This document shows positions 2,994 to 55,048 of a stretch of DNA of 64,000 bases, piece after piece. The DNA comes from an uncultured Bacilli bacterium (GTDB taxonomy: Bacteria > Bacillota_I > Bacilli_A > RF39 > UBA660). Within the stretch, counting starts at the first letter, position 1, and every line of letters starts with the position of its first letter. The position numbers and the translations under genes are program-made. Under the pieces are notes generated by a model. It worked only from the letters and a program-made list of their open reading frames with translations, had not been told where the DNA came from and made no database searches. The stretch spans positions 36,441-100,440 of the forward strand of contig CAKOPG010000001.1 in assembly GCA_934098745.1 (NCBI GenBank). The letters run 5' to 3'.

Positions 2994-2996
2994 TTT

Positions 2997-3027: not shown

Positions 3028-3066
3028 GAGTATTATGATATAATCAATTTATATGATAGGAGTGAT

Positions 3067-5517: not shown

Positions 5518-5559
5518 ATACTAGACAAACTATAAAAAAAGTTATATAATAATTTGCGA

Positions 5560-5767
5560 ATCAAGAAAAACTATGATTAGGATACGATTATATTATTAGA
5601 TTTAGAGAGAGTTAGTGGGTGGTGGAAACTAATATGAAGATGATATGATTACTACCTAGGAGTTGCTACTGAAAAGATAGCCGGGATATAATCTCGTTAA
5701 TTAAATTAAGACCAAATTAGGATGGTACCGTGTTTATATACACTCCTTATAAGGGGAGTGTTTTTTA
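5560..5767 (+). promoter_or_regulatory. T-box leader (Thr specifier) with intrinsic terminator, upstream of thrS
   Basis: AGAGA element at 5606-5611. Candidate specifier ACU/ACC in gattACUACCtagg. T-box sequence aaattaggatggtaccgtg at 5714-5732. Terminator cactcc...ggagtg plus T6 at 5741-5766. Confidence 0.7.
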
Positions 5768-5782
5768 GTTATATGAAGGAGA

Positions 5783-10825: not shown

Positions 10826-11599
10826 ATGAATGAAAAGGGTAAGATAGTGACAATTTCATCAGTTAAGGGTGGGGTTGGTAAGACGACATTAGTACTTAAT
10901 TTAGCTGGATTATATTTTCTTATGAAGAAGAAAGTTTTAATAATTGATTTAGATTTGTATGCAGGGGGAGTAGCTACTTGTTTAAATATTAATAATAAGA
11001 GAGATATATATATGCTTGTAGATGCTCTTAGTAATAATAAGTCTGTATCTTTAAGTGATTACGTAACGGCTTATAATAGTGGTATTAGTGTCTTAGCAAA
11101 TCCAAAAGATCCACGTGATGTTTCAAAAATGGAAAGTAAATACTTAATGCAGATATTTGATTTAGCTAAAAGTGAATACGATGTGGTGTTGGTAGATACT
11201 TCACATTCACTTGATGAAACTTGTTTAGTAGCATTGGATGCTTCAAATTGTAGTGCTTTTGTGATTACTAATGATTTAGTAGATTTAAAGAATATGAAGA
11301 GTTTAGTTAGTATTTTTAAGGAAATGGATAAAGAGAATTATAAGATAGTTTTAAATAATTCTAGAGATACTGGAAGAGATTATATAAGTTTGTTTGATAT
11401 TAGAAATATGATTAAGAGAAATGTTGATTATACGATATCTAGAAATTTTTATATAAAGAATATAGATAAATATGTTTTAAATGGAGAAATATTAACGCTT
11501 AATAAATTTATTACAAGGTTTAATGGGGCAGATATTGCTAATATGAATAAATTGGCTCTTTCCTTGATCAATTATAGTGAGGAGGGAGAAAATGAGTAG
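10826..11599 (+). CDS. CpaE/TadZ-like ParA/MinD-family ATPase
   Basis: Deviant Walker A SSVKGGVGKTT. RBS AGGTGA. The ORF-track start at 10817 is an upstream GTG. Confidence 0.7.
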   Translation: MNEKGKIVTISSVKGGVGKTTLVLNLAGLYFLMKKKVLIIDLDLYAGGVATCLNINNKRDIYMLVDALSNNKSVSLSDYVTAYNSGISVLANPKDPRDVSKMESKYLMQIFDLAKSEYDVVLVDTSHSLDETCLVALDASNCSAFVITNDLVDLKNMKSLVSIFKEMDKENYKIVLNNSRDTGRDYISLFDIRNMIKRNVDYTISRNFYIKNIDKYVLNGEILTLNKFITRFNGADIANMNKLALSLINYSEEGENE

Positions 11600-12920
11600 T
11601 AATGGAACATTATTAAGAGAGTTTAATGTTAAGAAAAAGGAAAAAGAAGTAGTTGATGTTAAAGATTATGAAGTATTTTCGGATAAAGAAAAACTAGATG
11701 AACTTAGAACTAAGATTGTACAGAATTTAATCAATAATAAGATACCACAAAATGTTTCTTTGGAACAATATATTAACGATGAGATAGATGAAGTATTACA
11801 AGATTATGAACTTGGTTCGATGGAACGTAATCATATATGTAATTTAATTCAGAATGAAATAAATGGTTATGGACCGTTGACAGATTTACTTAATAATGAT
11901 ACGGTTACTGAAATAATGGTTAATGGAACAAATGAGATATATGTTGAAGTAGATGGTAAGCTTGTTAAAGATGAGTCAGTATCTTTTATTAATGATGAAC
12001 ATATAATTAGAACTGTTCAACGAATAGTTCAACCTTTAGGAAGAACGATAGATGCAGTTAATCCAATGGTAGATGCAAGACTTAGAGATGGTTCAAGACT
12101 TAATGCGATTATTCCACCATTATCTTTAAAGGGACCAGTAGTAACTATAAGAAAATTTTCAAAGCAGATGAATAGTATTGATGATTTGCTTCGTATGGGA
12201 ACAATGACGGCCCATATGGCCCAGTTTTTACAAGCCTGTGTTAGAGCAAAATTAAATATAATTATATCTGGAGGTACTGGTAGTGGTAAGACAACGTTGT
12301 TAAATATTTTGAGTGGTTTTATTGATGATGAGGAAAGAATTATTACTATTGAAGATGCGGCAGAATTAAAACTTCATCAATCACATGTTATTTCTCTTGA
12401 AACTAGAATGGTTAATTATGAGGGTGAAGGAGAAATTACAATTAGAGATTTAGTTAGAAACTCTTTAAGAATGAGACCTGATAGAATAATTGTTGGAGAA
12501 GTAAGAGGAAAAGAATCTTTTGATATGTTACAGGCTATGAATACTGGACATGAAGGTTCTATTACAACATTACATGCTAATAGTCCAGAAGATGCGATTA
12601 ATAGACTTGAGACGATGATGCTGATGAATGATATGGAACTGCCAGTTAGTGCTATAAGAAATTATATAGAAAAGGCTATTAATATAGTTATTCAGATAGA
12701 AAGACTTAGTGATGGTAAAAGAAAGATTACTTCGATTGAAGAAGTAGTAGGCTTTAAGGATGATAAAGTTTCTTTAAAAGAAATATTCTCATTTAAAGAA
12801 ACGGGAGTTAGTAATCAGGGAAATGTTATTGGAGAATTTGTGGTTTATAAACGTGTACCAAAGGTATATGATAAAATTAAAAGAAAAGGAATTGTTTTAG
12901 ATAATATATTTGGTGAATAA
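11592..12920 (+). CDS. cpaF: CpaF/TadA secretion ATPase (VirB11/GspE superfamily)
   Basis: Walker A ISGGTGSGKTTLLN; Walker B IIVGEVRG; His box TLHANS. RBS GAGGAGGGAG. Overlaps the upstream gene by 8 nt. Confidence 0.85.
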   Translation: MSSNGTLLREFNVKKKEKEVVDVKDYEVFSDKEKLDELRTKIVQNLINNKIPQNVSLEQYINDEIDEVLQDYELGSMERNHICNLIQNEINGYGPLTDLLNNDTVTEIMVNGTNEIYVEVDGKLVKDESVSFINDEHIIRTVQRIVQPLGRTIDAVNPMVDARLRDGSRLNAIIPPLSLKGPVVTIRKFSKQMNSIDDLLRMGTMTAHMAQFLQACVRAKLNIIISGGTGSGKTTLLNILSGFIDDEERIITIEDAAELKLHQSHVISLETRMVNYEGEGEITIRDLVRNSLRMRPDRIIVGEVRGKESFDMLQAMNTGHEGSITTLHANSPEDAINRLETMMLMNDMELPVSAIRNYIEKAINIVIQIERLSDGKRKITSIEEVVGFKDDKVSLKEIFSFKETGVSNQGNVIGEFVVYKRVPKVYDKIKRKGIVLDNIFGE

Positions 12921-12921
12921 G

Positions 12922-13068
12922 ATGAATGGTACTAGTAGATATAAAATGATTAGTTATATATCTTTATTGTTAATTATATGTGTATGCTCATTTTTAGTAG
13001 CGAAATATATTGTTAGAGAAGGTATTGATAATAGTAAGATACCGGTTGATACGAGTGAAAGAATATAA
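12922..13068 (+). CDS. Small single-pass membrane peptide (48 aa), not in the ORF track
   Basis: ATG 1 nt after the cpaF stop, with GGTGA upstream. Translation MNGTSRYKMISYISLLLIICVCSFLVAKYIVREGIDNSKIPVDTSERI. No G/xxxxEY Flp motif. Confidence 0.3.
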   Translation: MNGTSRYKMISYISLLLIICVCSFLVAKYIVREGIDNSKIPVDTSERI

Positions 13069-13084
13069 ATAGGTGGTGATAATT

Positions 13085-14077
13085 GTGGATAAAAAATTAT
13101 TGATTGTTTTTATACAGATAATATTGGTATTTTTAGTGGTAACAATTATCACTTTGTTTATTAGACTTAATAATGCTGTTAAGTTAGAAAAGAGAATATC
13201 TAGATATAGTGTTAAGTATAGTAAAGATTATGAAAATTTATCTTTATTTGATAAATGGTTTGTAAAGTATATAAAATTTGTTAAGATGCAAAGAAAAAAA
13301 ATGAAGAAGTTATTTCCAACATTAATAAAAAGATATGATAAATATGTAGTTAGTTCTTCAGTAAAAGCCGTTGATTATGTAACACATAAGGTGATTTTAG
13401 CAATTATATTTGTAATTTTAACAATTATAGGAAATGCTATTCAAGGAAGGTTTATTACTATTTTACAAATTATAGTTAGTCTTTTATTTGGATTTTTCTC
13501 ATTAGATTTATTTTTGATAATTAGACATAGAGTTAATAAGAAGAAGATTGAAAATGATATGTTAAGAGCAGTTATTATTATGAATAATGCTTTTAAATCT
13601 GGAAAATCTACGATTCAGGCGGTAGAAATAGCGAGTAATGAATTACCCAAACCAATTAATTTTGAATTTAAAAAGATATATGATGAGATGAAATATGGAA
13701 TGTCTGTTGATACGGTATTTGATAGATTTGCTAGAAGAATTAATATAGAGGAGGCTGAATATTTATCTTCATCTTTAACAATACTTAATAGAACTGGTGG
13801 TAATATTGTTAAGGTTTTTGATTCAATAGAGAGAACTTTATTTGATAAAAAGAAACTGAAGGAAGAACTTAAGAATTCAACTTTAGTATCTAAATTAGTA
13901 GTAAGAATATTACTTATTGTACCTATTTTATTTGTACTTATTATTTATTTATTTGATCCGAATTATTTTGATCCATTCTTTGAAAGTACTCTCGGATATA
14001 TTATGTTAGGTATTATATTTATTATGTTTATAATATATGCATATTTACTTGATAGGATTGTGAAGGTGAATTACTGA
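13085..14077 (+). CDS. tadB: TadB-like (T2SSF-domain) pilus assembly membrane protein
   Basis: T2SSF-like core IQAVEIASNELPKPINFEFKKIYDEMKYGMS. The start is ambiguous: GTG at 13073, 13076 or 13085. GTG 13085 sits 5 nt after AGGTGGTGA. Confidence 0.7.
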   Translation: MDKKLLIVFIQIILVFLVVTIITLFIRLNNAVKLEKRISRYSVKYSKDYENLSLFDKWFVKYIKFVKMQRKKMKKLFPTLIKRYDKYVVSSSVKAVDYVTHKVILAIIFVILTIIGNAIQGRFITILQIIVSLLFGFFSLDLFLIIRHRVNKKKIENDMLRAVIIMNNAFKSGKSTIQAVEIASNELPKPINFEFKKIYDEMKYGMSVDTVFDRFARRINIEEAEYLSSSLTILNRTGGNIVKVFDSIERTLFDKKKLKEELKNSTLVSKLVVRILLIVPILFVLIIYLFDPNYFDPFFESTLGYIMLGIIFIMFIIYAYLLDRIVKVNY

Positions 14078-14775
14078 TGAATAAAGAAGATTTTATAAAT
14101 AGGTTATATAGTAAGAGTTATGTTAAGAAGATAAGTGATAAGGTAAAATTATTGGGAGTAGGTAATAAGTTAGATTATAAAGATTTAATAATAGGGAGAT
14201 TGTTATCTTCAGTAATATTATTTTTGTTTATTATTTATGCGAATAGATATGGGTATATAATAGCCCCAGTAGTAACAATTATATATCATTTTCTATTTAA
14301 TAAGATTGTTTTAGATGATAAGATAAAGAAAAGAGTAATTACGCTTGAAAATGAAGCTATGCATTTTTTTGAGGTTTTAACTTTATCATTAGAAACTGGT
14401 AGAAACTTAGTAGAAGCGATAGAAGTAACGACGAGAAATGTTAGTGGTATTTTATCAGATGAATTTAAAGAAGCAGTAAGAGAAGTAGGTTTTGGTAAGA
14501 GTTTGAATGAGGCTTTAAGAGATATGCAAGAGAGAATACCATCTGATACGATTAATAATATAGTTTTATCTTTAACACAAGCTAATTTATATGGTAATAG
14601 TATTATAGATAATTTATATCAACAAGTAGATTATTTAAGAGAAAAGAGAAAATTAGAAGTAAAGGGAAAGATTAGTAAGGTGCCTATTTTAATTAGTGTA
14701 ATATCAGTATTATTCTTTATACCACTTTTACTATTTATAATACTAGGACCAATTCTTTTAGATTATTTAAGTTAA
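14077..14775 (+). CDS. tadC: TadC-like (T2SSF-domain) pilus assembly membrane protein
   Basis: LETGRNLVEAIEVTT...GFGKSLNEALRDMQERIP. TGATG overlap with tadB. Confidence 0.7.
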   Translation: MNKEDFINRLYSKSYVKKISDKVKLLGVGNKLDYKDLIIGRLLSSVILFLFIIYANRYGYIIAPVVTIIYHFLFNKIVLDDKIKKRVITLENEAMHFFEVLTLSLETGRNLVEAIEVTTRNVSGILSDEFKEAVREVGFGKSLNEALRDMQERIPSDTINNIVLSLTQANLYGNSIIDNLYQQVDYLREKRKLEVKGKISKVPILISVISVLFFIPLLLFIILGPILLDYLS

Positions 14776-25766: not shown

Positions 25767-26411
25767 ATGATGTTAATATATGTAGCTAGTGCATTAATAT
25801 TAATGCCATACATTATTTATTTTTTTAATATATTGATTAATAAAGATAAAAAGGTAACTGATGATAATGGATTTAATGTTACTAAGGATATTGTATCTTC
25901 ATATGATAAGATTAATATTATAGAGACAACAGGATTAGTTACTTATTATAATCCTAAAAGAAAAGTAATTAAACTTAATAGTAAGTGCTATTATGGATCT
26001 AATTTAAGTGTAATAGCCATATCTTTATTGGAAGCAGGAATATCGGTTACTGATAATAAAAAGAATAAATACTTAAAGATATTTAAAGTATTATTTAGTA
26101 ATTTAAAATTACTTTATATATTTCCATTAATAATATGTTTTATAAATACCCAAGTATATGAATTATATGATGCAGTAGTTGGTTTAATTTTAGTTATACT
26201 TTGTACAACAATTACTTATATGTTTAATAATATAATAATTTTGTCTTTTGATTGGGTAAGTAATAATATTGAAAAAGTTAAATCTATCTCAAAAAGGAAT
26301 AAAGAATTAGTTATTAATTATATTAAGAATATTGTTTTTATGAATAGATTTATCTTTTTTGGAGAATTATTAATAATTATTAGAATGGTAGCAATAATTA
26401 TTAGTAAATAA
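25767..26411 (+). CDS. Polytopic membrane protein, YugP-like (putative zinc-metallopeptidase family) with a degenerate HExxH motif
   Basis: GLVTYYNPKRKVIKLNSKCYYGSNLSVIAISLLEAGISV aligns to my memory of the YugP-family G.LSDHYDPR.K.VRLS...AAHExGHAI block. LEAGI sits where HExGH is expected. N- and C-terminal TMs. Confidence 0.4.
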   Translation: MMLIYVASALILMPYIIYFFNILINKDKKVTDDNGFNVTKDIVSSYDKINIIETTGLVTYYNPKRKVIKLNSKCYYGSNLSVIAISLLEAGISVTDNKKNKYLKIFKVLFSNLKLLYIFPLIICFINTQVYELYDAVVGLILVILCTTITYMFNNIIILSFDWVSNNIEKVKSISKRNKELVINYIKNIVFMNRFIFFGELLIIIRMVAIIISK

Positions 26412-26481: not shown

Positions 26482-27609
26482 ATGGTATTTTGTTTAGCAT
26501 TGGTATTGGGGTATACAATATTAAATAATAAGAATGATAAGAAAGATAATTCAGTAAGTATAGATGATAAGGTTGAGTCTGTAATTACTTTAGATATTAA
26601 TCCAAGTATAAAGTTAGAAATAAATAAAGATAAACAAGTTATTAATATGATATCTTTAAATGAAGATGGAAAAGATATCATTATAAATAATTATAAAGGA
26701 AAGAATTTTGAGGTAATTATAGATAATATTACTGATAAATTAATTGATAAAGGATATGCCAAAGATGAATTGATTATTTTAGTAGGAGTTAAGGGAAAGA
26801 TTCTTGAAGAAGAAGTAAAAGAGGTTTTTGATAATAAGTTAGAGAATAAGGATATTAAATATAATATAATTATTCCAGAAATTAGTGAGAGTTCTTCTTT
26901 AATAGCTAAAAAGTATAATATTACTGATAGTAAGGCTTCATATTTAGAGGATATTTTAGAAAAATATACAGATTTAAAAATAGAAGATTTAAAAGATATG
27001 AATATAAAAGATATTATTACTAAAACTGAAGAAATAGATAAATCACTTGATAATGATAATAAGGAAGAGAATAATAATAGTGATAATCAGGGAAATGGCA
27101 ATTCTTATGGTGGAGGGTATGGAACACTAGAGAAATGTAATTATGTAAGCAGGGCTTTAACGAATGAAGAAGCAGGTAAGAAAGTGGCTTCATTAATGGG
27201 AGCTAGTGTTGGTACGGGAAAATACTGCGATAAGTTGGCACCGGAGTCGGTGGCAGATTTGTCGGCTGATGGTACATGTGTATATAAAGTAACATTTGCC
27301 CATAGGACTAGATCATGCGTTTATTATGTAGGGGTTGAGACAGGTAATATAATAGGAGAACCTAGTTGTACTTCAAAATTAGTAGATGAAGGAGAAGTCC
27401 AATGTATTGTTATGGAATCAATGGGAATTACAAAGCGTGAACAAGCATATTTAAAAAATAATAGAGATAATGGTAGTGGATGGATATATGATGTAGAAGA
27501 TGTATATGGAACACCTGATGAAGAAGGAAAAAAATATATTTATGAATATCATGTATCTAAATATACGGGAGAGATTACTAGTAAAATAAAAATTGGGGAA
27601 TTATCTTGA
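26482..27609 (+). CDS. Exported or membrane-anchored protein with an N-terminal DINPS-containing region and two C-terminal PepSY-like domains; N-terminus possibly frameshifted (alternative start 26454)
   Basis: ITLDINPSIKLEINKDKQVINMISLNEDGKDII (RsgI-like, from memory). PepSY-like KVTFAHRTRSCVYYVGVETGNIIGE and YEYHVSKYTGEITSKIKIGE. Strong RBS AGGAGT serves ATG 26454, which is in another frame. Confidence 0.5.
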   Translation: MVFCLALVLGYTILNNKNDKKDNSVSIDDKVESVITLDINPSIKLEINKDKQVINMISLNEDGKDIIINNYKGKNFEVIIDNITDKLIDKGYAKDELIILVGVKGKILEEEVKEVFDNKLENKDIKYNIIIPEISESSSLIAKKYNITDSKASYLEDILEKYTDLKIEDLKDMNIKDIITKTEEIDKSLDNDNKEENNNSDNQGNGNSYGGGYGTLEKCNYVSRALTNEEAGKKVASLMGASVGTGKYCDKLAPESVADLSADGTCVYKVTFAHRTRSCVYYVGVETGNIIGEPSCTSKLVDEGEVQCIVMESMGITKREQAYLKNNRDNGSGWIYDVEDVYGTPDEEGKKYIYEYHVSKYTGEITSKIKIGELS

Positions 27610-27765
27610 GATATTTTAGAATAAATGTATAAATAAAATTATATATTTATTCTATTTTTTGTAAAATAAATGATTTGTTTTGGAAATAGTTTGTTACAAA
27701 TTATTTATGTTGCCTTTTAATAAAAAAAATGATATACTCTAAATAAAGGATAGTGGGTAAATTAT

Positions 27766-29358
27766 ATGAAAAAGAGTGATAAGAAATTAATTATAGTATT
27801 ATTGATTATGTTAGTTGTTTATGTTGTAAGAAACGTAAGTATTAACATTGGAAAAAGTGTAATATTTAATACAGATAATGTTTTGAATATATTATCTTCT
27901 TATGAGAATGCTGATTTAGAAGATAATATAAAATCTTATGCTAAAAGGAAGAAAATTAATTTGAAATTTACCTACATGGGGGATTTGGATATAGTAGATG
28001 AATTAAATATTAATTCTAAGAATTATGATGCTGTATGGATAGCTAATTCTATGTGGTTATATATGTTAGATAATCCATATTTAGCGAGTGATTCAAAGAG
28101 TATTAGTATTAGCCCAGTAGTATTTGGAGTTAAGAAAAGTAAGGCTTTAGATTTGGGATTAACATCAGGTGATGTTTCAAATGAAGATATATTAAATTTA
28201 ATTATGGAAAATAAATTAAAATATATTATGCCTTCGGCTACTAAAACAAATACTGGAGCTACGGCGTATATCGGATTTTTAAATTCACTTGCCGGTAATC
28301 CAGAAATATTAACAGAAAGTCATTTAGATAATGAAGAACTAATTAGTAAATTAACTAATTTATTTAAAGGAGTAGAACGTGTAAGTGGTGATGAAAACTT
28401 CTTAAGGGAAATGTTTTTGAATAATGATGAATATGAAGCTGTTATATCGGATGAGGCATCTTTAATTAATATTAATAAAACATTGAAAAGCCAAGGAAAA
28501 GAAGAATTATATTTGATCTATCCTACTGATGGGGTAGCAGTTAATGATTCGACACTAGGATTTATTGGTAATGATGAAGAAAAAAAAGATAAATTTTTAG
28601 TTATCCAGAATTATTTACTTAGTGAAGATGGACAAAAAATGCTAAATGAGGTTGGTAGGAGAACTTGGTATGGGGGAACAAATGATAATGTAGATAAGAG
28701 TGTATTTAATCAAGATTGGGGGATAGATACTACTAAATATTTAAATGTAACAAGATTTCCTTCTAAGAAAGTAATAACTAAAGCAATTAATTTATATATC
28801 GAAGCAATAAGGAAACCTACTCATACAGTATTTTGTTTAGATTATTCAGGAAGTATGTATGGTGATGGTATTAAAGAATTAACTAATGCTATGAAGTATA
28901 TTTTAGATTATAATGAATCTTCCGTAGATAAATTACAATTTTCTAAGAAAGATAAAATAACTGTTATAACATTTAGTAATGAGGTAAGTAATGTGTGGAC
29001 TACTGATAGTGGTTATGAAACGGAAACTTTGATAAATAATATAGAAGGCTTTAATACAGGTGGGGGAACGGCTTTGTATGATGCTATAGAAAATGGGTTA
29101 TTAATATTAAATGATGAAACAGATGATTATACAAAGACGATAATTGCGATGACCGATGGGGCTGTTAATATTGGTAGTTTTAATGATTTATCAAGAACTT
29201 ATAGAAATTTAGATAAAGAGATACCAGTATATAGTATTACTTTTGGAAATGCTAATGAAACAGAATTATCAAGAATTGCAACACTTACAAATGCTAAAGT
29301 ATTTGATGGTAAAACAGATTTACTTAAGGCATTTAAAGAAGTTAGAGGATATAATTAG
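27766..29358 (+). CDS. Membrane-anchored protein with a solute-binding-protein-like domain and a C-terminal von Willebrand factor A domain
   Basis: N-terminal TM. SBP-like PSATKTNTGATAYIGFL. vWA MIDAS LDYSGSM...TDG. Confidence 0.6.
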   Translation: MKKSDKKLIIVLLIMLVVYVVRNVSINIGKSVIFNTDNVLNILSSYENADLEDNIKSYAKRKKINLKFTYMGDLDIVDELNINSKNYDAVWIANSMWLYMLDNPYLASDSKSISISPVVFGVKKSKALDLGLTSGDVSNEDILNLIMENKLKYIMPSATKTNTGATAYIGFLNSLAGNPEILTESHLDNEELISKLTNLFKGVERVSGDENFLREMFLNNDEYEAVISDEASLININKTLKSQGKEELYLIYPTDGVAVNDSTLGFIGNDEEKKDKFLVIQNYLLSEDGQKMLNEVGRRTWYGGTNDNVDKSVFNQDWGIDTTKYLNVTRFPSKKVITKAINLYIEAIRKPTHTVFCLDYSGSMYGDGIKELTNAMKYILDYNESSVDKLQFSKKDKITVITFSNEVSNVWTTDSGYETETLINNIEGFNTGGGTALYDAIENGLLILNDETDDYTKTIIAMTDGAVNIGSFNDLSRTYRNLDKEIPVYSITFGNANETELSRIATLTNAKVFDGKTDLLKAFKEVRGYN

Positions 29359-29369
29359 GGGGTGATATT

Positions 29370-29996
29370 ATGAAACATAAGGATACAGTATCTGCAGTTA
29401 TTGGTAGTATGTTCTTCGCTGTTCCTTATTTAGCATTATCACTTCCGGTATTACCATCGCTTGCTATTGGAGTATCAGCCTTTTGTGCAGGAGAGTTAGT
29501 GTTTGGTAAAACAAAAAATCCTAGTTTAAAAGAGGCAAACTTTGATTTATATAAAGTATTAGAAAATGCTAAAAAGCAAAATAAACATATATTAGAAATG
29601 AAGTCATGTATAGATAATGAAGAAATAAATGCATATTTAACTCAAATACATGATAGTACTGCAAAGATAATTAAAACAGTAGAAAAGAATCCTAAGAAAA
29701 TTAAAAATATAGATAATTTCTTTGATTACTATTTACCAATAACAGTCAGAATAGTAGATAGATATGATGAGATAGAAAATCAAAATTTATCTTCAAAGGA
29801 TAGTAAAAAGTTTATCAGTTCTACATCTAATATGCTTGAAGCAGTGAGTAAAGCTTTTAAAAATATATTAAATAGTTTGTATCAATCGGAAATAGTTGAT
29901 ATGGATGCAGAAATGAAAGTATTTAGTTCGATGTTAAGAGCAGATGGATTTGATGATAATGGAATAGAAGTTAATAAGGAGGATAATAATGGATAA
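29370..29996 (+). CDS. XpaC-like membrane protein (5-bromo-4-chloroindolyl phosphate hydrolysis protein family)
   Basis: About 208 aa with two N-terminal TMs and a helical C-terminal domain. Lies upstream of a TelA-like gene, as for Bacillus subtilis xpaC-yaaN. Assignment by family architecture. Confidence 0.5.
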   Translation: MKHKDTVSAVIGSMFFAVPYLALSLPVLPSLAIGVSAFCAGELVFGKTKNPSLKEANFDLYKVLENAKKQNKHILEMKSCIDNEEINAYLTQIHDSTAKIIKTVEKNPKKIKNIDNFFDYYLPITVRIVDRYDEIENQNLSSKDSKKFISSTSNMLEAVSKAFKNILNSLYQSEIVDMDAEMKVFSSMLRADGFDDNGIEVNKEDNNG

Positions 29997-31173
29997 GAAG
30001 AAATGGATTGGTATTTTGGTGTTCATTGTACTTATTCTATTGATAATTGGAATAAAAACATTTAGTGGATCAAGTACAATAGGTAATTTAACGACTGTTT
30101 ATGTAGCTACAGGTGGCGGAAAAGAAGATTTTCTATCTGATGAAAGAGTTCAAGAAATACTAAGAAAAAAATATAAATTAAATGTAGTATTCGATACTTG
30201 GAGTAATGGTAAAACAATAACGAAACCATTAATAAGAGAATCTGTTAAATTAGGTAATGAGAGTATAATTAATAGGATTAATAATGGAGAAGATATAACT
30301 ATTAATACTAGTGGGGTTACTAAGTATGATGTATTGTTTACTTCAGATCAAAGATTTTATGATTATTATAAGTTATCTCCAAATAAAGAAAATGGTGAAG
30401 CTGATAGGTATACGGTGTTAGCAGGAGGGTTAACGTTAAATACACCAATTGTGGTATATAGTTGGAAAGAAGTAGTTAATGCTTTGATAAATGAAAATAT
30501 TGTTACAGAAACTGATGGAGTATATTATATAACTGATATGAATAAGTTAATAGATTATATACTAAGTAATAAGAAATGGAGTGATATAGGATTAAATGAT
30601 TTATATGGTAATATTAATATAGCATCTACTGATCCAGTATCATCTAGTCCTGGAGCAACTTATTATGGATTACTTTTATCAGTATTAAGTAATGGACAGA
30701 TATCTGATGATAATATAGATGAAAATTTAGTAAAATTAAAACAATTTTATCAGAAATCTGGTTATATGAATAATACGCCAGCTGATTTATTTGAAAGATA
30801 TTTAAAAACAGGTATGGGTGGAGAACCAATGATTGTTGATTATGAAAAAAGTATAATAGATTTTGCTAATTCTAATCCTAATGGGTTTAATCAAGTAAAA
30901 GATGATATTGTGGTATTATATCCTAAACCTACTATATGGAATTCACATTGTTTAACAATATTTACAGAGAATGGTAAGAAGTTATATGATGCTTTTGAGG
31001 ATCCTGAAATAGGACAGATAGCGTGGGAAAAATATGGATTTAGAACAGGTATTTCTGGAGGAACATATGATGTATCTACGATTGGAATTGGCGTACCACA
31101 AAATATAACTAGTACAGTTACAAGTTTAAAAATGGATTATTATAATAAATTAATAGATTATTTAAAAAATTAG
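29989..31173 (+). CDS. Membrane-anchored solute-binding-protein-like protein, paralogous to the N-terminal domain of the vWA protein
   Basis: N-terminal TM. VYVATGGGKEDF and ASTDPVSSSPGATYYGLL, compare PSATKTNTGATAYIGFL in the 27766 gene. Confidence 0.5.
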   Translation: MDKKKWIGILVFIVLILLIIGIKTFSGSSTIGNLTTVYVATGGGKEDFLSDERVQEILRKKYKLNVVFDTWSNGKTITKPLIRESVKLGNESIINRINNGEDITINTSGVTKYDVLFTSDQRFYDYYKLSPNKENGEADRYTVLAGGLTLNTPIVVYSWKEVVNALINENIVTETDGVYYITDMNKLIDYILSNKKWSDIGLNDLYGNINIASTDPVSSSPGATYYGLLLSVLSNGQISDDNIDENLVKLKQFYQKSGYMNNTPADLFERYLKTGMGGEPMIVDYEKSIIDFANSNPNGFNQVKDDIVVLYPKPTIWNSHCLTIFTENGKKLYDAFEDPEIGQIAWEKYGFRTGISGGTYDVSTIGIGVPQNITSTVTSLKMDYYNKLIDYLKN

Positions 31174-31184
31174 GAGTGAGGAAT

Positions 31185-32324
31185 ATGGAATTAAAGGTAG
31201 AGAATAAAATATCTGCACAAACGGCAGAGAAGTTAACCGAGAATGTGGGAAAGATAACTGATGAGAAGATAGAAAAATCATTAAATTATGATGAACTGTC
31301 TAAAGAAGAACAGAAGGCTGTTGATGAATTTAATGCTAAGATAGATGTTATGGATTCAACGCAAGTATTACAATATGGAGCTAGTGCTCAAAATAAGATA
31401 AGTGAATTTTCTGATTCAGTACTTGAAGATGTTAAAACTAAGAATGTAGGGGACGTCGGAGATTTATTAGCAAATTTAGTATCTGAAATTAAGTCATTCG
31501 ATTCAGCAATCAATAAATCTTCACCAAAAGGATTGGCAAAGTTATTTCATAGTTTTAAAAAGGAAGTAAATTATATTGTTGCTAAATATAACAAAATAGA
31601 AAACAATATTGATACTATTGAAAAAGGACTTGAAAGTAATAAATTACAATTATTAAAAGATATTAATTTATTTGATACGATGTATGAGAAAAATTTAGAT
31701 TATTTTAAAGAAATATCTTTATATATAATTGCTGGTGAGAGAAAACTTGAAGAATTAAAGACTAAAGTATTACCAGAATTAAAGAAAAAAGCGCAGGAGT
31801 CTAATGATCAAATAGAAATACAAAAAGTAAATGATATGGAGACGCAAATAAATAGATTTGAAAAGAAATTATATGATTTAAAAACAACTAGAATTATTTC
31901 TATTCAAATGGCTCCACAAATTAGATTACTTCAAAATAATGATGCTGAATTAGTAGAAAAGATTCAAAGTTCAATTACTAATACAATTCCTTTATGGAAA
32001 AATCAGATAGTATTGGCACTAGGAATAAATAATTCTAAGAAGGCATTAAAACAACAGCAAGCAGTATCAGAATTAACTAATGATATGTTAAAGAAAAATA
32101 GTGAGACTTTGAAACAAGGTTCTATTGATATAGCAAAAGAATCTGAGAAAGCTATTATTGATATTGAAACATTAAAGAAAACTAATAAAGATATAATTGA
32201 TACATTAGATACTGTTATTAAGATTCATGAAGATGGTAGAGTTAAACGTGCTGAAGCAGAAAAAGAACTTGAAACTATTGAGAAAGAATTAAAAGATAAG
32301 TTATTAGAAATAAATGTAAAATAA
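31185..32324 (+). CDS. telA: TelA-like toxic anion resistance protein
   Basis: DSTQVLQYGASAQNKISEFSDSVLEDVKTKNVGDVGDLL matches the TelA/KlaA family core. RBS TAGGAGTGAGG. The ORF-track start at 31176 is a GTG. Confidence 0.7.
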   Translation: MELKVENKISAQTAEKLTENVGKITDEKIEKSLNYDELSKEEQKAVDEFNAKIDVMDSTQVLQYGASAQNKISEFSDSVLEDVKTKNVGDVGDLLANLVSEIKSFDSAINKSSPKGLAKLFHSFKKEVNYIVAKYNKIENNIDTIEKGLESNKLQLLKDINLFDTMYEKNLDYFKEISLYIIAGERKLEELKTKVLPELKKKAQESNDQIEIQKVNDMETQINRFEKKLYDLKTTRIISIQMAPQIRLLQNNDAELVEKIQSSITNTIPLWKNQIVLALGINNSKKALKQQQAVSELTNDMLKKNSETLKQGSIDIAKESEKAIIDIETLKKTNKDIIDTLDTVIKIHEDGRVKRAEAEKELETIEKELKDKLLEINVK

Positions 32325-32367
32325 AAATAAAGCATAGTAATATGCTTTTATTTATAAGGGATGAATT

Positions 32368-33948
32368 ATGAATAATCGAGTTAATTTTAATGAAATATAT
32401 GAGGATTTTTTTGGGAAAAATGCTAATCTTGTATTAAATAGTAATGAAACAAATAAAGAAGAAATAATATCAATAGATGAATACAGTAATAAAATAGATA
32501 GGATGTATTTATCTGATTCATCAAAAGAATTATTAAAGAAGATAATTAATTATATGGCTAATTATAAAGAAGATAATATTTATGTTAATTTTAATATAAT
32601 AATAGAATCTAAGAATAAAGAATTAATTAAAGATATAATTGATCTAATTAATAGTGTAGGTTTATCAAGTAAATATATTAAAGGAAATGGTATAAGTAAT
32701 ATATCATTATATAGATTAGAAGTTATAAATATATTTGAAGAATCTTATAATAATCATAGTATGATAATATTAAGTGATTTAGAGGGGTTATCATTACATG
32801 ATACAAATTATAATAAGAAGATATTATATATAATTAAAGAACATTTAAAAGATAAGAAAATAACAATAATTACAGGAAATAAGAATGAGATAAATAATTT
32901 GTTTTTAGATGATATAGAAGAGAAAAATAATTGTTTTAATTTTATTCTTACAGAGATATTACCAAAAAGTAATGAAATAGTAGAAAATATTATAGATAGT
33001 TTACCAAATAATTTAGTTAATGATAAGTTTAGAATAGATTTATTAAATTATATTGAAGAGACATTTATAAAGAGTGGATTAGATTATCCAACATATAGAG
33101 ATAATCTATGTAGATATATTACATTTAATCAAGAATTACCTAAGTTATATATAAATAAAACAACTGAAGAAATATTTAGAGAGTTAAATTCACTAGTGGG
33201 ATTGACTAAAGTTAAGAAATCATTATATGATCTAGTAGATTTAATTACTTTGAAGAATAAAACTAAAGGGGATTTAAAATTAAATAATATAAATTTGCAT
33301 ATGTTATTTTTAGGTAATCCAGGTACAGGTAAGACAACAGTAGCTAGAATGTTAAGTAATATTTTATATAATTTAAAGTATATTAGACAGAATAAATTAA
33401 TAGAGGTTAGTTCTAAAGATCTAGTTGCTGAATATGTTGGACAGACAGCTCCTAAAACAATGGCAGTAATTAACAAGGCATTAGGAGGAATATTATTTAT
33501 TGATGAAGCATATTCTTTGGCGGTAGATAAAAATAATTCTTATAATGCTGAAGCTATCGCTACCTTGATAAAAGCAATGGAAGATTATCGAGATGACTTG
33601 GTAGTAATATTTGCTGGATATACCAAAGAGATGCAAGATTTTATAAATTCTAATTCTGGTATAGCTTCAAGAATTGGATATACATTTACTTTTGATGATT
33701 ATACTAATGAAGAATTAAAGAAAATATTTACTAATATGATGGAAAAATCAGGATTTAAAGTAGTACAAGAAGCATTAGTTAAATTAGATGATATAATTAA
33801 TAAAGAAAGATTAAATAACAATTTTGGTAATGCAAGATTTATTAGAAATGTATATGAGAAAACTATTATTAATCATGCTACAAATACTAAGAATATTAAA
33901 GATAAAAATAAATTAAAAACAATAACAGAAGATGATATAATTATTTAA
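32368..33948 (+). CDS. AAA+ ATPase of the CbbX/SpoVK family with an approximately 260-aa N-terminal domain of unknown function
   Basis: Walker A LGNPGTGKTTVA; Walker B ILFIDEAYSL; sensor and arginine-finger region typical of SpoVK/CbbX. Confidence 0.7.
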   Translation: MNNRVNFNEIYEDFFGKNANLVLNSNETNKEEIISIDEYSNKIDRMYLSDSSKELLKKIINYMANYKEDNIYVNFNIIIESKNKELIKDIIDLINSVGLSSKYIKGNGISNISLYRLEVINIFEESYNNHSMIILSDLEGLSLHDTNYNKKILYIIKEHLKDKKITIITGNKNEINNLFLDDIEEKNNCFNFILTEILPKSNEIVENIIDSLPNNLVNDKFRIDLLNYIEETFIKSGLDYPTYRDNLCRYITFNQELPKLYINKTTEEIFRELNSLVGLTKVKKSLYDLVDLITLKNKTKGDLKLNNINLHMLFLGNPGTGKTTVARMLSNILYNLKYIRQNKLIEVSSKDLVAEYVGQTAPKTMAVINKALGGILFIDEAYSLAVDKNNSYNAEAIATLIKAMEDYRDDLVVIFAGYTKEMQDFINSNSGIASRIGYTFTFDDYTNEELKKIFTNMMEKSGFKVVQEALVKLDDIINKERLNNNFGNARFIRNVYEKTIINHATNTKNIKDKNKLKTITEDDIII

Positions 33949-48923: not shown

Positions 48924-49139
48924 CAAGTTTTTCTATTTAAAAAATATGGCTACATTATTAAGTGAGGGATATAATATAGTTAGTAATGTTGTAGTAGTAA
49001 TTAGTCCGATAAATAAATATTCAAATGATAACTGTGGTTGTGATGTCCCTTATTGGAGAATTTAGTATTTGACAATTTATAAAAAGAATGATATTATTTA
49101 GTAAATGTAGGGAATAGGAGAAGTAGCAATAATAAAATA

Positions 49140-49368
49140 ATACAGTGAGTTAGAAGTAGTGAGAACTAATAAAATTGATTATTGTGAATAACACCTAGGA
49201 GCAGGTTAGCTGAAATAAGGAGTAAGTTAATTCGGAAGACAAACCGTTATCAGATTGTTAGGCTTGATGGAGCTAAAAGAGTGATTATAATGAAAGTTAT
49301 AATAATGTAGGTGGTACCGCGGATACACAGTGTTCGTCCTATTTGGGATGAATACTGTTTTTTCATAT
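49140..49368 (+). promoter_or_regulatory. T-box leader (candidate Asp specifier GAC) with intrinsic terminator, upstream of aspS
   Basis: TTGACA-17-TATTAT promoter at 49069-49097. Candidate specifier ggaaGACAaa. T-box sequence aatgtaggtggtaccgcgg at 49305-49323. Terminator acagtgttc...gaatactgt plus T6. Confidence 0.7.
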
Positions 49369-49405: not shown

Positions 49406-51139
49406 ATGAAGACAATTTATAGGGACCACTTATGTGGTATGATTAGTGAAAAAGAAATAGGAAGAGAGATTAGAATTTCGGGATTTGTCAGTAATATTAG
49501 AGATCATGGAGGAATATTGTTTCTAGATATTAGAGATGAATCGGGGGTTATGCAAGTAGTTAGTATGGATGATAAGATACTTATGGATATTAATAAGGAG
49601 AGCAGTGTAACAGTAACGGGGATAATAAGAGAAAGAGATATAGATGATTATAATGATAAAATAAGTACAGGAAGAATAGAATTACTTATATCTAAAATAG
49701 AATGTTTAAATAAGGTAAGAAAAACTTTACCTTTTGAAATAATTACTTCTCATGAATTATCAACTGATATTAGATTTAAGTATCGTTATTTAGATTTAAG
49801 AAACAAAAAAATTCATGATTTAATAGTAAATAGAACAAAGGTAATTAAGTATTTAAGAGATATGATGAGTAGAGATGATTTTTTAGAAATAACAACGCCA
49901 ATAATTACTTCTAGTTCTCCCGAAGGCGCAAGAGATTTTATAATTCCATCAAGAAAATTTTATGGGAAATTTTATGCTTTGCCACAAGCACCGCAAGTAT
50001 TTAAACAGTTATTAATGGCTTCAGGGTTTGAAAAATATTTTCAAATAGCGCCTTGTTTTAGAGATGAAGATGCAAGGGTAGATAGGTTATATGGGGAATT
50101 TTATCAATTAGATTTAGAGATGGCTTATGTTACTGAAGAAGATGTTTTAAAGGTTGGTAAAAAGATATTTCGTAATATTTTTAAAAAGTTTGTAGGTTGG
50201 AAGAAAATAGAATTTCCAGAAATTACTTATAGAGAAAGTATTAGTAAATATGGGACGGATAAACCTGATTTGAGAATTCCATATATTATTCAAGATGTAA
50301 GTAAGGTATTTGATACGACAACTTTTAAACCTTTTAGAGGAGTAGAAGTAAAGGCTATTGTTGTCCCTTCTATATATAATAAAAGTAATAGTTGGTATAA
50401 TGAACTTCAAGAGTATGCTAAGAGTATTGGTTTACCGGGTATAGGTTATTTTAAGGTAATGGATGATATGTCTTTTAATGGACCAATAGATAAATTTTTA
50501 ACAGATAAAGAGAGAAAAGACTTAATAGAGATAGCTGGTCTTAAGAAGAAGGATGTAATATTTTTTATTGCAGATAAAGATAAGGCTTTAAAATATGCTT
50601 CTTTAGTTAGAATAGAGTTAGGAAGAAAAATGGGATATTTGGATACTAAGGAATATAAATTTTGTATTGTAAAGAATTTTCCAATGTATGAATATGATAT
50701 TGAGACTGATAAATATAAATTTTGTCATAACCCTTTTTCAATGCCTAAATGTAGGATTGATGATATGACTATGGAGAATATTGATAAGATAGAAGCATAT
50801 CAATATGACTTTGTATGTAATGGAATAGAGATGGCTAGTGGGGCAGTTAGATGTCATAAGATAGAGATGATGAAGAAAGTATTTTCTTTGATTGGATATG
50901 GAGAAGATAAAATACGCGATAAGTTTGGGGCTTTGTATGAGGCATTTTGTTATGGAACACCACCACATGCTGGAATGGCTATCGGAATTGAGAGAATGTT
51001 AATGCTTATAAATGATACGAGTAGTATTAGAGAAGTCGTGGCATTTCCACTTAATGCATCGGGAATTGATATGATGATGCAGACACCAGATACTATAACG
51101 GAAGAACAACTTAGAGAAACACATATAAAAATAAGATAA
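49406..51139 (+). CDS. aspS: Aspartate--tRNA ligase, bacterial type, probably non-discriminating
   Basis: Class II motifs FRDED, QLDLEMAY, GIERM; GAD insertion; immediately upstream of gatCAB. Confidence 0.9.
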   Translation: MKTIYRDHLCGMISEKEIGREIRISGFVSNIRDHGGILFLDIRDESGVMQVVSMDDKILMDINKESSVTVTGIIRERDIDDYNDKISTGRIELLISKIECLNKVRKTLPFEIITSHELSTDIRFKYRYLDLRNKKIHDLIVNRTKVIKYLRDMMSRDDFLEITTPIITSSSPEGARDFIIPSRKFYGKFYALPQAPQVFKQLLMASGFEKYFQIAPCFRDEDARVDRLYGEFYQLDLEMAYVTEEDVLKVGKKIFRNIFKKFVGWKKIEFPEITYRESISKYGTDKPDLRIPYIIQDVSKVFDTTTFKPFRGVEVKAIVVPSIYNKSNSWYNELQEYAKSIGLPGIGYFKVMDDMSFNGPIDKFLTDKERKDLIEIAGLKKKDVIFFIADKDKALKYASLVRIELGRKMGYLDTKEYKFCIVKNFPMYEYDIETDKYKFCHNPFSMPKCRIDDMTMENIDKIEAYQYDFVCNGIEMASGAVRCHKIEMMKKVFSLIGYGEDKIRDKFGALYEAFCYGTPPHAGMAIGIERMLMLINDTSSIREVVAFPLNASGIDMMMQTPDTITEEQLRETHIKIR

Positions 51140-54434: not shown

Positions 54435-54463
54435 TTGACAGAAAGAATAATATTTGATATAAT
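54435..54463 (+). promoter_or_regulatory. Consensus sigma-A promoter
   Basis: TTGACA at 54435-54440; exactly 17 nt spacer; TATAAT at 54458-54463. Confidence 0.6.
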
Positions 54464-54469
54464 CTATAT

Positions 54470-55030: not shown

Positions 55031-55048
55031 ATTTTTTTGGAGGAAAAA

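Follow-up and report, generated by a model that had tools for sequence, protein, structure and literature searches.

A five-gene block combining two binding-protein-like paralogues, XpaC, TelA, and a tandem AAA+ ATPase in an uncultured Bacilli bacterium

Introduction

In 2012, Anantharaman, Iyer and Aravind reportedly used comparative genomics to predict membrane complexes centred on TelA, possibly with periplasmic-binding-protein-II domains, and an AAA+ fifth gene is not known to form part of that description. Proteins containing TelA or von Willebrand factor A (vWA) domains have been described, by the Anantharaman, Iyer and Aravind group, as components of sub-membrane structures (PMC7824862).

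The XpaC-TelA (xpaC-yaaN) pair of the Bacillota is found in envelope-stress regulons, and alters the susceptibility to nisin or daptomycin in Listeria, Enterococcus, and Bacillus. In B. subtilis, for example, the xpaC-yaaN operon belongs to the core sigma-W regulon (PMC3498285). The lmo1966-67 operon of Listeria responds to bacteriocin, and the sensitivity to nisin of the telA mutant in this genus is increased 4-fold (PMC12791056). In E. faecium, the deletion of xpaC lowers the daptomycin MIC 8-fold, which occurs only when telA is intact, and shifts the phospholipid microdomains (PMC6811118).

The window analysed here, a stretch of 64,000 nucleotides from an uncultured Bacilli bacterium, carries clear members of both the XpaC and the TelA families in a single co-directional block of five genes, which encode the proteins P1 to P5. 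The first four of these genes form a core that is present in several bacterial phyla, and has never been studied as a unit. The block may be an outside-in device for the sensing and protection of the envelope, in which the ATPase would remodel the cytoplasmic part, a tentative reading that is given here with a little less than even confidence.

Organization of the locus

All five genes are open reading frames on the plus strand (Table 1), co-directional and closely packed at 27766-33948, as the preliminary description of this DNA had claimed. The 8-nt overlap that it reported is also present, with the genes of P2 and P3 sharing ATGGATAA at 29989-29996, and the domains that it proposed are borne out by Pfam, which recovers SBP_bac_11 and VWA in P1, Halogen_Hydrol/XpaC in P2, TelA in P4, and AAA together with AAA_lid_6 in P5. 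The neighbours of the block are housekeeping genes, such as those of EF-G, EF-Tu, FtsW, and transketolase, and a PBP5/DacF-like gene is found downstream of the block in the window.

Table 1. Coordinates of the genes, candidate signals, and protein regions of the block (nucleotide positions in the window; residues in the respective protein).
Feature	Position	Strand	Description
P1 gene	27766-29358	+	530 aa; ORF
P2 gene	29370-29996	+	208 aa; ORF
P3 gene	29989-31173	+	394 aa; ORF
P4 gene	31176-32324	+	382 aa; ORF
P5 gene	32368-33948	+	526 aa; ORF
Candidate operon promoter	27710..27738	+	TTGCCT, 17 nt spacer, TATACT, TG ahead of the -10; 28 nt upstream of the P1 start
Small hairpin	32329..32348	+	AAAGCAUA-GUAA-UAUGCUUU, then a U-rich run; inside the 43-nt TelA-P5 spacer
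P1, N-terminal anchor	residues 8-24		hydrophobic
P1, binding domain	residues ~40-340		type-II binding-protein-like
P1, vWA domain	residues 354-512		intact MIDAS
P5, tail	residues 1-34		disordered
P5, first module	residues 35-258		degenerate AAA+ (predicted structure), no P-loop
P5, second module	residues 263-526		intact, CbbX/SpoVK/EccA type

The operon promoter is listed as a candidate only, and the promoter-like matches in the region are not in excess of those obtained in shuffled sequences (76 versus 81). The start of P2 is preceded by the ribosome-binding site GGGGGTG, and the analysis of these sites and the start codons indicates that the true start of P4 is more probably the ATG at 31185, behind the ribosome-binding site GGAGTGAGGA, than the GTG at 31176.

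The hairpin in the spacer between the TelA and P5 genes has a fold energy of -8.4 kcal/mol (z = -3.1), and a similar structure is found in a number of related loci (L004, L005, L013, L015, L017, L033, and L038), while the spacer is just 1-17 nt long in others. The consensus terminator scan, which called no terminator-like site on the plus strand within the five-gene block, missed this hairpin because its stem has fewer than three G-C pairs. Partial termination or attenuation may take place at this hairpin, so that the expression of P5 could be partly separate from that of genes 1-4.

Conservation and taxonomic distribution

The same five genes were found, in the same order, in the 72 loci that were fetched, of which 70 are independent, given that three (L001-L003) are near-identical places with the same flanks, obtained from the look-up of one protein. 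The flanks vary, their genes falling into 49 families upstream and 44 downstream, and the median intergenic gaps are 7, -8, 4, and 33 nt, from P1 to P5. As the gene order is constant in 72 loci with differing flanks, the five-gene arrangement goes far beyond what chance would produce. The selection of the 80 closest loci was by similarity, however, and the linkage of the ATPase is thus established for one clade only.

The four-gene core is found in the same order in the Clostridia-type loci L084-L087, in an alphaproteobacterium (L093), and in L098 and L099, and in permuted order in the betaproteobacterium Sphaerotilus and the actinomycete Nonomuraea, with partial sets in Schekmanbacteria, Chloroflexota, and Deinococcus. 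The order of the vWA protein, XpaC, P3, and TelA, and the recurring overlap between the XpaC and P3 genes, persist across phyla. Most lineages have this core without the ATPase, which is restricted to loci in which the identity of P3 is approximately 71% or more, and some half of the sampled distant loci have no TelA (L088, L090, L091, L092, L094, and L097). Genes 1-4 are a much older and widespread module, then, and the ATPase is an addition in one uncultured gut/rumen lineage of the Bacilli. The five-gene unit of the preliminary description stands insofar as the genes are co-conserved in the 72 loci, but it is not a single ancient architecture, as the ATPase is a lineage-specific fifth gene on an old four-gene core. 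In L091, an ECF sigma factor gene lies directly upstream of the module, and the module is immediately followed by the genes of a response regulator and a histidine kinase.

The Ter/TelA determinants have been tied to phage inhibition and colicin resistance (PMC9240799; PMC7824862), and the block might have a similar role in anti-phage or colicin defence, with the ATPase as the effector or switch, given that it stays together as its genomic position shifts, and that P5 has weak matches to the TRIP13 and IetA AAA+ models of PADLOC. These matches are to generic AAA+ models only, however, at 22-31 bits, and P1-P4 match no model of PADLOC-DB 2.0. There is no relative among 50,697 phage records, the matches in plasmids are to large, non-mobilizable replicons, and the block, which is surrounded by housekeeping genes and is present wherever the locus of a relative reaches far enough, looks core rather than accessory. 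A role in defence is, on these grounds, improbable.

The binding-protein-like proteins P1 and P3

In Pfam, P1 matches SBP_bac_11 over residues 51-297, at 30 bits against a cut-off of 25, and VWA over residues 355-512, at 58 bits. The preliminary description had claimed an intact MIDAS motif (DxSGSM...TDG), and the residues D359, S361, S363, T435, and D464 are all present, and invariant across 88 P1-like sequences. The vWA domain of P1 has the DxSxS, T, and D residues of a functional MIDAS, and is predicted to bind metal. The hydrophobic N-terminus is here a membrane anchor, which is replaced by a lipobox Cys in nine P1-like proteins of other lineages, while the P1-like protein of L094 is anchored by a transmembrane segment, unlike the lipobox-bearing homologues examined in other lineages. 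P1, including the vWA domain, is predicted to be extracytoplasmic, since this domain is located after the lipoprotein signal or membrane anchor and the binding-protein domain.

This topology bears on the analogy drawn previously with the MoxR-vWA chaperone pairs, in which the ATPase would mature the vWA protein or load its metal. While a vWA protein and an AAA+ protein do share one block, the analogy fails because the two are predicted to occupy opposite sides of the membrane, with the ATPase lacking any signal or membrane segment. The ATPase is, in addition, of the CbbX/SpoVK/EccA type, with no match to the MoxR family in Pfam or NCBIfam, and in most lineages there is a vWA protein but no ATPase, which leaves a pair of this type barely credible.

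No match to P3 was obtained in the Pfam, NCBIfam, or PDB sequence searches, and its paralogy with the N-domain of P1 is invisible to BLASTP (E = 0.15). The comparison of the two by hhalign, however, resulted in a probability of 98.7% (E = 3.7e-16, 271 columns), which upholds the earlier claim of paralogy, and shows P3 to be a true, yet ancient, paralogue of this domain. The AF2 model of P3 (pLDDT 85.7) was matched by Foldseek to STM0429 and to the binding proteins of iron (FbpA/FutA), sulfate (Sbp), and molybdate (ModA), with E down to 2.5e-11 and TM of 0.5-0.68, and the two-component-system binding protein 6lkg is also among the matches. A type-II periplasmic binding protein fold is assigned to the P1 N-domain by the Pfam profile, and to P3 by the predicted structure and hhalign. 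A membrane anchor is present in every P3-like protein examined, and P3 is predicted to be extracytoplasmic, held in the membrane by a single helix. No other gene of the block is as well conserved as that of P3 (71-94% identity in the close loci), and the P3 family has 736 representatives at 50% clustering.

In a narrower form of the envelope-sensing reading, the binding pair would sense phosphate or a phosphate-like oxyanion (arsenate, tellurite, sulfate, or molybdate), as part of a response to limiting phosphate or toxic oxyanions. Among solved structures, the nearest in fold to P3 bind sulfate, molybdate, and iron(III), and iron(III) binding proteins use a synergistic anion. The Pfam match of P1 is SBP_bac_11, and a conserved loop of P3, TDPxxSxxG, precedes the N-terminus of a helix in the AF2 model, which would be a common anion-binding geometry. 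The name of XpaC comes from the hydrolysis of a phosphate ester, according to the Pfam description, and that of TelA from tellurite resistance. In L095, the P3-like gene begins 5 nt after the end of a PhoX phosphatase gene, and an extracellular nuclease gene follows the module, while the module of L084 is flanked by a Na/Pi cotransporter-PhoU gene and two PstS-like genes. These phosphate-related neighbours are found in only two of approximately 15 diverse loci, however, and none was noticed in a non-systematic look at the 72 close loci. The ligand is not fixed by the similarity of the fold, and the experimental phenotypes of XpaC and TelA involve membrane-active peptides, rather than phosphate, and the sensing of oxyanions is thus considered unlikely.

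Such a fold, with anchoring as a lipoprotein or in the membrane, is also typical of the binding proteins of Gram-positive transporters, and P1 and P3 could be ordinary subunits of an ABC transporter encoded elsewhere, with only an incidental proximity to XpaC and TelA. In one locus of the Chloroflexota (L090), an ABC ATPase and a BPD_transp_1 permease are in fact encoded two genes downstream. This is the sole exception among the distant loci, however, as no such pair is present in the other 13 of the 14, nor in the block of the window, nor is one conserved across the 72 close loci. The gene order and the XpaC/P3 overlap kept across phyla argue for function as a unit, and the fusion with an extracytoplasmic MIDAS vWA domain is not a feature of transporters. 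The preliminary view that these domains are not ordinary ABC-transporter subunits has thus held, and the contrary is very improbable.

XpaC and TelA

P2 matches Halogen_Hydrol/XpaC (PF10112) at 81 bits, against a cut-off of 29.8, and has both the profile and the N-terminal two-helix hairpin of the XpaC family, with hydrophobic windows at residues 6-35. It is predicted to consist of a two-helix membrane hairpin (approximately residues 6-45), with a cytoplasmic helical domain of approximately 160 aa after it. P4 is a full-length TelA (PF05816), with 402 bits against a cut-off of 30, over residues 49-377 and the profile positions 1-331 of 332. Neither TelA nor P5 has a hydrophobic segment, and both are thus taken to be cytoplasmic.

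The tandem AAA+ ATPase

The C-terminal half of P5 matches CbbX in the PDB at 1.5e-54, in agreement with the SpoVK/CbbX-like C-terminus that had been claimed for this 526-aa ATPase. The Walker A (GNPGTGKT), Walker B (LFIDEAY), pore loop (EYVGQ), sensor 1 (VIFAGYT), and Arg finger (SRIG) motifs of this module, which are those of an active AAA+ motor, are conserved at approximately 100% in 71 sequences, and the module is predicted to be an ATPase. The N-terminal module has no such conservation of motifs in the same sequences. The AF2 model of this domain (pLDDT 83.7) has CbbX as its best fold match in the PDB (TM 0.60, E = 8.6e-6), and the N-terminal 260 aa, unassigned in the preliminary description, would be, from this predicted structure, a degenerate second AAA+ module, rather than a novel domain. 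The profile comparison of the two halves of P5 was not significant (2% probability). In the N-terminal tail, Y11, D13, F14, and F15 are invariant.

The assignment of P5 to SpoVK, CbbX, or EccA was rejected, as it scored 250 bits against SpoVK (TIGR02881; cut-off 423), 227 bits against CbbX (TIGR02880; cut-off 459), and 190 bits against EccA (TIGR03922; cut-off 467), and thus missed all three equivalog cut-offs. The neighbourhoods that were examined showed no Rubisco genes.

The best NCBIfam match of P5 is nevertheless spore_V_K, and P5 could be a SpoVK orthologue in a block that serves the remodelling of the envelope in spore formation. SirA is found near L001, GerA-type genes and SpoIVA near L098, and the PBP5/DacF-like gene follows the block in the window. 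The score of P5 is far under the SpoVK cut-off, however, and it carries an extra dead AAA+ module, which is not known from the SpoVK of B. subtilis. The four-gene core is also found in non-sporulating phyla, and the locus of a spore-former, L098, has this core without the ATPase. An unlinked SpoVK, a possibility that had been raised at the outset, does not agree with these scores, nor with the position of P5, which adjoins TelA while the flanks change, and a role in sporulation is quite improbable.

Proposed mechanism

The block can be read as one functional unit with two layers, in which genes 1-4 would form a membrane-spanning system, to which gene 5 was added. The two paralogous type-II binding-like domains would be located on the outer face of the cytoplasmic membrane, in P1 together with the MIDAS vWA adhesion domain, and in P3 held by its helix. 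As there is no dedicated permease, P1 and P3 most likely form a pair of receptors that recognise a small anionic ligand or a component of the envelope, rather than transporter subunits. XpaC, which is encoded between the two and is translationally coupled to P3, may pass the signal across the membrane through its hairpin and cytoplasmic domain.

TelA would be the cytoplasmic effector at the inner leaflet, where it may guard the membrane against membrane-active agents. The binding-protein pair can apparently work without TelA, given the absence of the latter from about half of the distant loci, which weakens the case for TelA as an obligatory effector. P5, with its dead first module and live threading module of the CbbX/SpoVK/EccA type, most likely remodels or recycles TelA or the cytoplasmic domain of XpaC, and the conserved motif of its N-terminal tail, together with the fast-evolving dead module, would be the docking part. 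The envelope-stress or ligand-sensing function suggested in the preliminary description fits the experimental literature on XpaC and TelA.

Comparison with known systems

The block differs from the Ter (terZABCDE-type) clusters, given that its TelA is not accompanied by TerB, TerC, or TerD, either in or flanking the block in the window, or in the neighbourhoods of the relatives listed. The same absence separates it from the predicted TelA/TerB sensory complexes, from which it also differs in the predicted position of the vWA domain, which is outside the membrane, rather than beneath it. The MoxR-vWA pairs likewise have AAA+ and vWA genes in one cluster, but both the compartments and the AAA+ group differ here.

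Binding-protein sensors that are independent of transporters, such as those acting through two-component kinases, also have a type-II fold without an adjoining permease. In this block, by contrast, there is no kinase, chemoreceptor, or cyclase, and the part of the transducer would fall to XpaC, for which no signalling chemistry is known.

Over its full length, the C-terminal module of P5 can be aligned with CbbX, and it retains the key motifs of the CbbX/SpoVK/EccA group. P5 resembles EccA in having a distinct region at the N-terminus, which could serve in the choice of substrate, although this region is predicted to be a degenerate AAA+ fold, rather than a TPR domain, and the genomic partner of P5 is TelA, rather than Rubisco, a type VII secretion system, or sporulation genes.

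In comparison with xpaC-yaaN, the pair is split here by a binding-protein paralogue, preceded by the fusion of a binding protein with a vWA domain, and followed by the gene of a tandem AAA+ protein. The putative extracytoplasmic input that this arrangement gives to the cytoplasmic pair is absent from the two-gene xpaC-telA operons of the model organisms.

Organization of the gene block

ORF calling in the window, where the G+C content is approximately 27%, recovered the five co-directional genes that the preliminary description had proposed as a membrane cluster, and at the same positions. These genes (P1 to P5 in the table) encode a binding-protein-like protein with a C-terminal vWA domain, the small protein XpaC, a second binding-protein-like protein, TelA, and a tandem AAA+ ATPase. 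A ribosome-binding site is found 5' of each gene, P2 and P3 overlap at the sequence ATGGATAA, and the more probable start of the TelA gene is the ATG at 31185, rather than the GTG at 31176. The consensus terminator scan called no terminator-like site on the + strand within the block, and missed the hairpin, followed by a U-rich run, which lies in the spacer between the TelA and ATPase genes. No NCBIfam family was found for P2, P3, or P4, and TelA had no match among the PDB sequences. Elsewhere in the window, a T-box leader and a full-length OLE (ornate large extremophilic) RNA were identified; the latter is a known family, and its presence in an uncultured gut lineage of the Bacilli is notable.

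Coordinates and matches of the features in the window
Feature	Position	Strand	Length	Match or remark
Zn_peptidase_2-like ORF	25767-26411	+		Weak match; directly upstream of the block, with the RsgI_M ORF
RsgI_M ORF	26482-27609	+	375 aa	RsgI_M anti-sigma central domain; no adjoining sigma factor gene
P1 (binding-vWA protein)	27766-29358	+	530 aa	Pfam SBP_bac_11, 30 bits (cut-off 25); VWA, 58 bits
P2 (XpaC)	29370-29996	+	208 aa	XpaC / Halogen_Hydrol, 81 bits
P3 (binding-like protein)	29989-31173	+	394 aa	No match in Pfam, NCBIfam, or PDB sequences
Insertion in P3	30271-30363	+		P3 residues ~95-125; AlphaFold2 pLDDT 60-78 (lower confidence)
P4 (TelA)	31176-32324	+	382 aa	TelA, 402 bits
Hairpin, then U-rich run	32329-32348	+		-8.4 kcal/mol, z = -3.1
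P5 (ATPase)	32368-33948	+	526 aa	AAA and AAA_lid_6
T-box leader	49101-49344	+		RF00230, 112 bits; just 5' of ORF 49406-51139
OLE RNA	54460-55044	+		Rfam RF01071, 359 bits, E = 6e-102

Conservation of the block in close relatives

When one genome per species was scanned, 336 stretches encoding a relative of P3 were recovered, of which the best 80 (identity 71-94%) were fetched; with the tight P3 alignment A3 as the query, these 80 loci represent a single clade, and the more distant contexts were sampled one at a time. The relatives belong to an uncultured gut or rumen lineage, with records labelled as Bacilli, Erysipelotrichaceae, Tenericutes, Clostridium sp. CAG:762, and Acholeplasma sp. CAG:878. 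Nearly all of the fetched loci that are uncut by a contig end have P1-P2-P3-P4-P5 in one order and on one strand, the sole exception being L005, in which P1 is split in two and P2 was not detected. The median spacers within the block are 7, -8, 4, and 33 nt.

The comparison of gene neighborhoods supports the cluster as a unit, given that the five genes are co-conserved in 72 of the fetched loci (70 of them independent, since L001-L003 are near-identical places with common flanks, derived from the look-up of one protein), while their flanks vary. The nearest upstream neighbors fall into 49 families at 67 loci, and the nearest downstream neighbors into 44 families at 64 loci. The flanking genes of the window (EF-G, EF-Tu, the Zn_peptidase_2-like and RsgI_M-like ORFs, and a PBP5-like gene) almost never recur at the other loci. 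Membership of the RsgI_M-like and Zn_peptidase_2-like ORFs in the unit was considered and rejected, because both are absent from the loci of the relatives. A Zn_peptidase_2 gene lies two genes upstream of the vWA/P3 pair at the distant locus L094, and an ECF sigma factor gene and a 377-aa protein gene lie directly upstream of the module in L091.

An anti-phage defense role for the block is improbable, given its housekeeping gene context, the lack of any specific PADLOC match, and the lack of relatives of P3 in 50,697 phage records.

A four-gene core in distant lineages

The P3 family comprises 736 representatives at 50% clustering, and extends to the Schekmanbacteria, Chloroflexota, and Alphaproteobacteria. 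The genes for the binding-vWA protein, XpaC, P3, and TelA are found in the order of the window in Clostridia-type loci (L084 to L087, P3 identity 35-39%), in an alphaproteobacterium (L093), and in two loci with a P3 identity of 61-64% (L098 and L099), which lack the ATPase. The order is permuted in Sphaerotilus (L095) and Nonomuraea (L096), with P3, TelA, the binding-vWA protein, and a small hairpin protein; taken as a group, the small hairpin proteins of these permuted loci have an 85% probability of a match to the XpaC profile. Other loci carry part of the set: L091 and those of the Schekmanbacteria (L092) and Deinococcus (L097) lack TelA and have the vWA protein, P3, and either XpaC or a small protein resembling it, while that of the Chloroflexota (L090) and L094 have the vWA protein and P3 only. 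In Ca. Weimeria (L088), where the contig begins inside the XpaC gene, XpaC and P3 are found with no TelA downstream.

No ATPase was found at any of these distant loci (L084-L088 and L090-L099). Because of this, P5 would have joined the module within the sublineage with a P3 identity of approximately 71% or more, and the four-gene core is, on the comparison of these loci, older than this addition. TelA is missing from around half of the distant loci sampled, so the more fundamental unit may be the outer pair together with XpaC.

Elsewhere, the genes found 3' of TelA are unrelated, such as a cardiolipin-synthase-type PLD gene (L084) or a 246-aa ORF (L099), which was considered as a counterpart of P5, and proved to be unrelated to it. 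The PLD gene (L084 9295-10908; PLDc_N and two PLDc_2 domains) is on the strand of TelA, in the place held by the AAA+ gene in the window, and hints at a connection with anionic phospholipids, which would agree with the xpaC phenotype of Enterococcus faecium. In L090, the binding-vWA/P3 pair is preceded (positions 1-3397) by DUF5682 and VWA_CoxE genes, together with EF-hand, HEAT-repeat, and pentapeptide proteins, a second vWA-containing set at this locus.

The paired binding domains

The pairwise BLASTP comparison of P1 and P3 was not significant (E = 0.15), so their paralogy could be recognized only through the comparison of profiles. The profile of the P1 N-domain, built from 82 sequences of related loci, matched the 55-sequence alignment of the P3 family with a probability of 98.7% (E = 3.7e-16, 271 columns, 16% identity), and the two share, among other motifs, YDxxW/F-xS, SP(V/I)V, T-x-x-(S/T)-G-A-T, YE-x-S-(I/L)I, LYP, and G-(F/R)-R-T. 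At the level of the sequence profiles, then, the P1 N-domain and P3 are true paralogues, as first proposed. Two of the 55 P3-family members reach SBP_bac_11 unaided, and neither the single P3 sequence nor its profile retrieved anything from the PDB sequences. AlphaFold2 models P3 (pLDDT 85.7, pTM 0.81) as an N-terminal helix leading into a type-II binding-protein fold, with STM0429 and the iron (FbpA/FutA), sulfate (Sbp), and molybdate (ModA) binding proteins as the top solved matches (E down to 2.5e-11, TM 0.5-0.68). Unlike the other family members, P3 in the window and the two representatives nearest to it contain an insertion of approximately 25-30 residues (ESVKLGNESIINRINNGEDITINTSGVT).

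That P1 and P3 might be the ordinary binding proteins of a transporter is highly improbable, given that no permease is conserved beside the pair. A phosphate-like ligand represents a narrower lead. The fold neighbors of P3 bind oxyanions, and the name XpaC derives from phosphate-ester hydrolysis. In Sphaerotilus L095, 5 nt separate the end of a PhoX phosphatase gene from the P3-like gene that follows, with an ExeM/NucH nuclease 3' of the module (4924-6846 and 11809-14673), and the module of L084 is flanked by a Na/Pi cotransporter-PhoU gene and two PstS-like binding proteins (1792-4586 and 11490-12488). Such phosphate-related neighbors were found at these two loci, from unrelated lineages, of about 15 diverse ones.

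Membrane topology

The N-terminus of the P1 of the window has a positive charge followed by a hydrophobic helix, with no cysteine, while nine P1-like proteins of other lineages have a lipoprotein signal with a lipobox cysteine at this position. All of the P3-like proteins examined carry a membrane anchor at the N-terminus. These anchors and signals place both binding domains and the vWA domain, in which the five MIDAS residues are invariant across 88 P1-like sequences, on the outer face of the membrane. XpaC has a two-helix hairpin, and TelA and P5 contain no hydrophobic segments and are presumably cytoplasmic.

The preliminary description had likened the vWA protein and the ATPase to a MoxR-vWA pair. 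This analogy is barely credible, given that the vWA domain would be outside the cell and the ATPase inside, and that P5 belongs to another AAA+ group.

The tandem ATPase

The C-terminal half of P5 matches CbbX in the PDB (1.5e-54), with the Walker A, Walker B, pore loop (EYVGQ), sensor 1, and arginine finger essentially invariant in 71 sequences. The protein falls short of the curated cut-offs of three families, namely SpoVK (250 vs 423), CbbX (227 vs 459), and EccA (190 vs 467). The possibility that P5 is the sporulation protein SpoVK is thus very slight, all the more so as the four-gene core is also found in non-sporulating phyla.

The N-terminal part, previously left unassigned, is predicted to be a second AAA+ module. 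In the AlphaFold2 model of residues 1-265 (pLDDT 83.7), residues 1-33 are disordered, and the remainder forms a five-stranded alpha/beta core followed by a helical bundle, with CbbX as the best PDB fold match (E = 8.6e-6, TM 0.60), and then Sec18/NSF, Hda, FtsH, DnaA, and Vps4. The expected places of Walker A and Walker B read FNIIIESKNKE and MIILSDLEG in the P5 of the window, neither of which is conserved in the orthologues, and the mean identity to this protein is 0.39 in the first module and 0.73 in the second. Comparing the profiles of the two halves gave no significant match (2% probability), so that the identification of the first module as a degenerate AAA+ is based on the predicted fold, and an internal duplication is not established by the sequence. 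The disordered tail retains four invariant residues (Y11, D13, F14, and F15), which could form a docking motif. A group of proteins of approximately 850-910 aa (P0415, P0417, P0420, P0430, P0460, P0468, and P0477), from Paenibacillus luteus, for example, match the live AAA+ half of P5 only, apparently contain several AAA+ modules, and may be the multi-module relatives that gave rise to the tandem architecture.

Proposed function and relation to known systems

Experimental work on the xpaC-telA two-gene operons links them to envelope stress. The operon of Bacillus subtilis belongs to the core sigma-W regulon (PMC3498285), and that of Listeria is induced by a bacteriocin, with the telA mutant being more sensitive to nisin (PMC12791056). 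In E. faecium, the deletion of xpaC redistributes the phospholipid microdomains; it also causes an 8-fold drop in the daptomycin MIC, but solely in cells with an intact telA (PMC6811118). The best-supported reading of the block, which combines its anatomy with these operon experiments, is that P1 and P3 would form an outward-facing receptor pair coupled through the XpaC hairpin to the cytoplasmic TelA and that, in the lineage of the window, P5 would remodel the cytoplasmic part.

Screens for nisin, daptomycin, and cationic-peptide resistance repeatedly identify TelA and XpaC, which are also recurrent members of envelope-stress regulons. In many phyla, this pair is hard-wired to two outward-facing binding-protein paralogues, one with a metal-dependent adhesion domain, so that a ligand-sensing complex may have TelA and XpaC as its cytoplasmic output. 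The lineage-specific tandem AAA+ provides a handle for finding the remodelled component, and the presence of the core in cultured organisms (Sphaerotilus, Nonomuraea, Streptomyces, Variovorax, and Deinococcus, the latter without TelA in L097) makes genetics feasible.

The TelA, XpaC, vWA, binding-protein, and CbbX-type AAA+ domains are all already known. A comparative-genomics paper of 2012 reportedly predicted membrane complexes centred on TelA, with binding-protein-II domains among their components. Among the papers searchable in full text, none was found to describe the order of the four genes, the position of the vWA domain outside the cytoplasm, or the addition of the tandem AAA+.

A more ambitious reading, though a rather unlikely one, is that the core is a complete outside-in pathway of membrane integrity, in which the receptor pair would sense envelope damage or a ligand, XpaC would gate a protective TelA scaffold on the inner leaflet, and the dedicated tandem AAA+ of this lineage would disassemble the scaffold. 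If true, this would account for the influence of TelA and XpaC on daptomycin and nisin resistance. The logic of such a scaffold and its disassembly by an AAA+ would be a bacterial parallel to that of ESCRT-III and Vps4, although the proteins themselves are unrelated.
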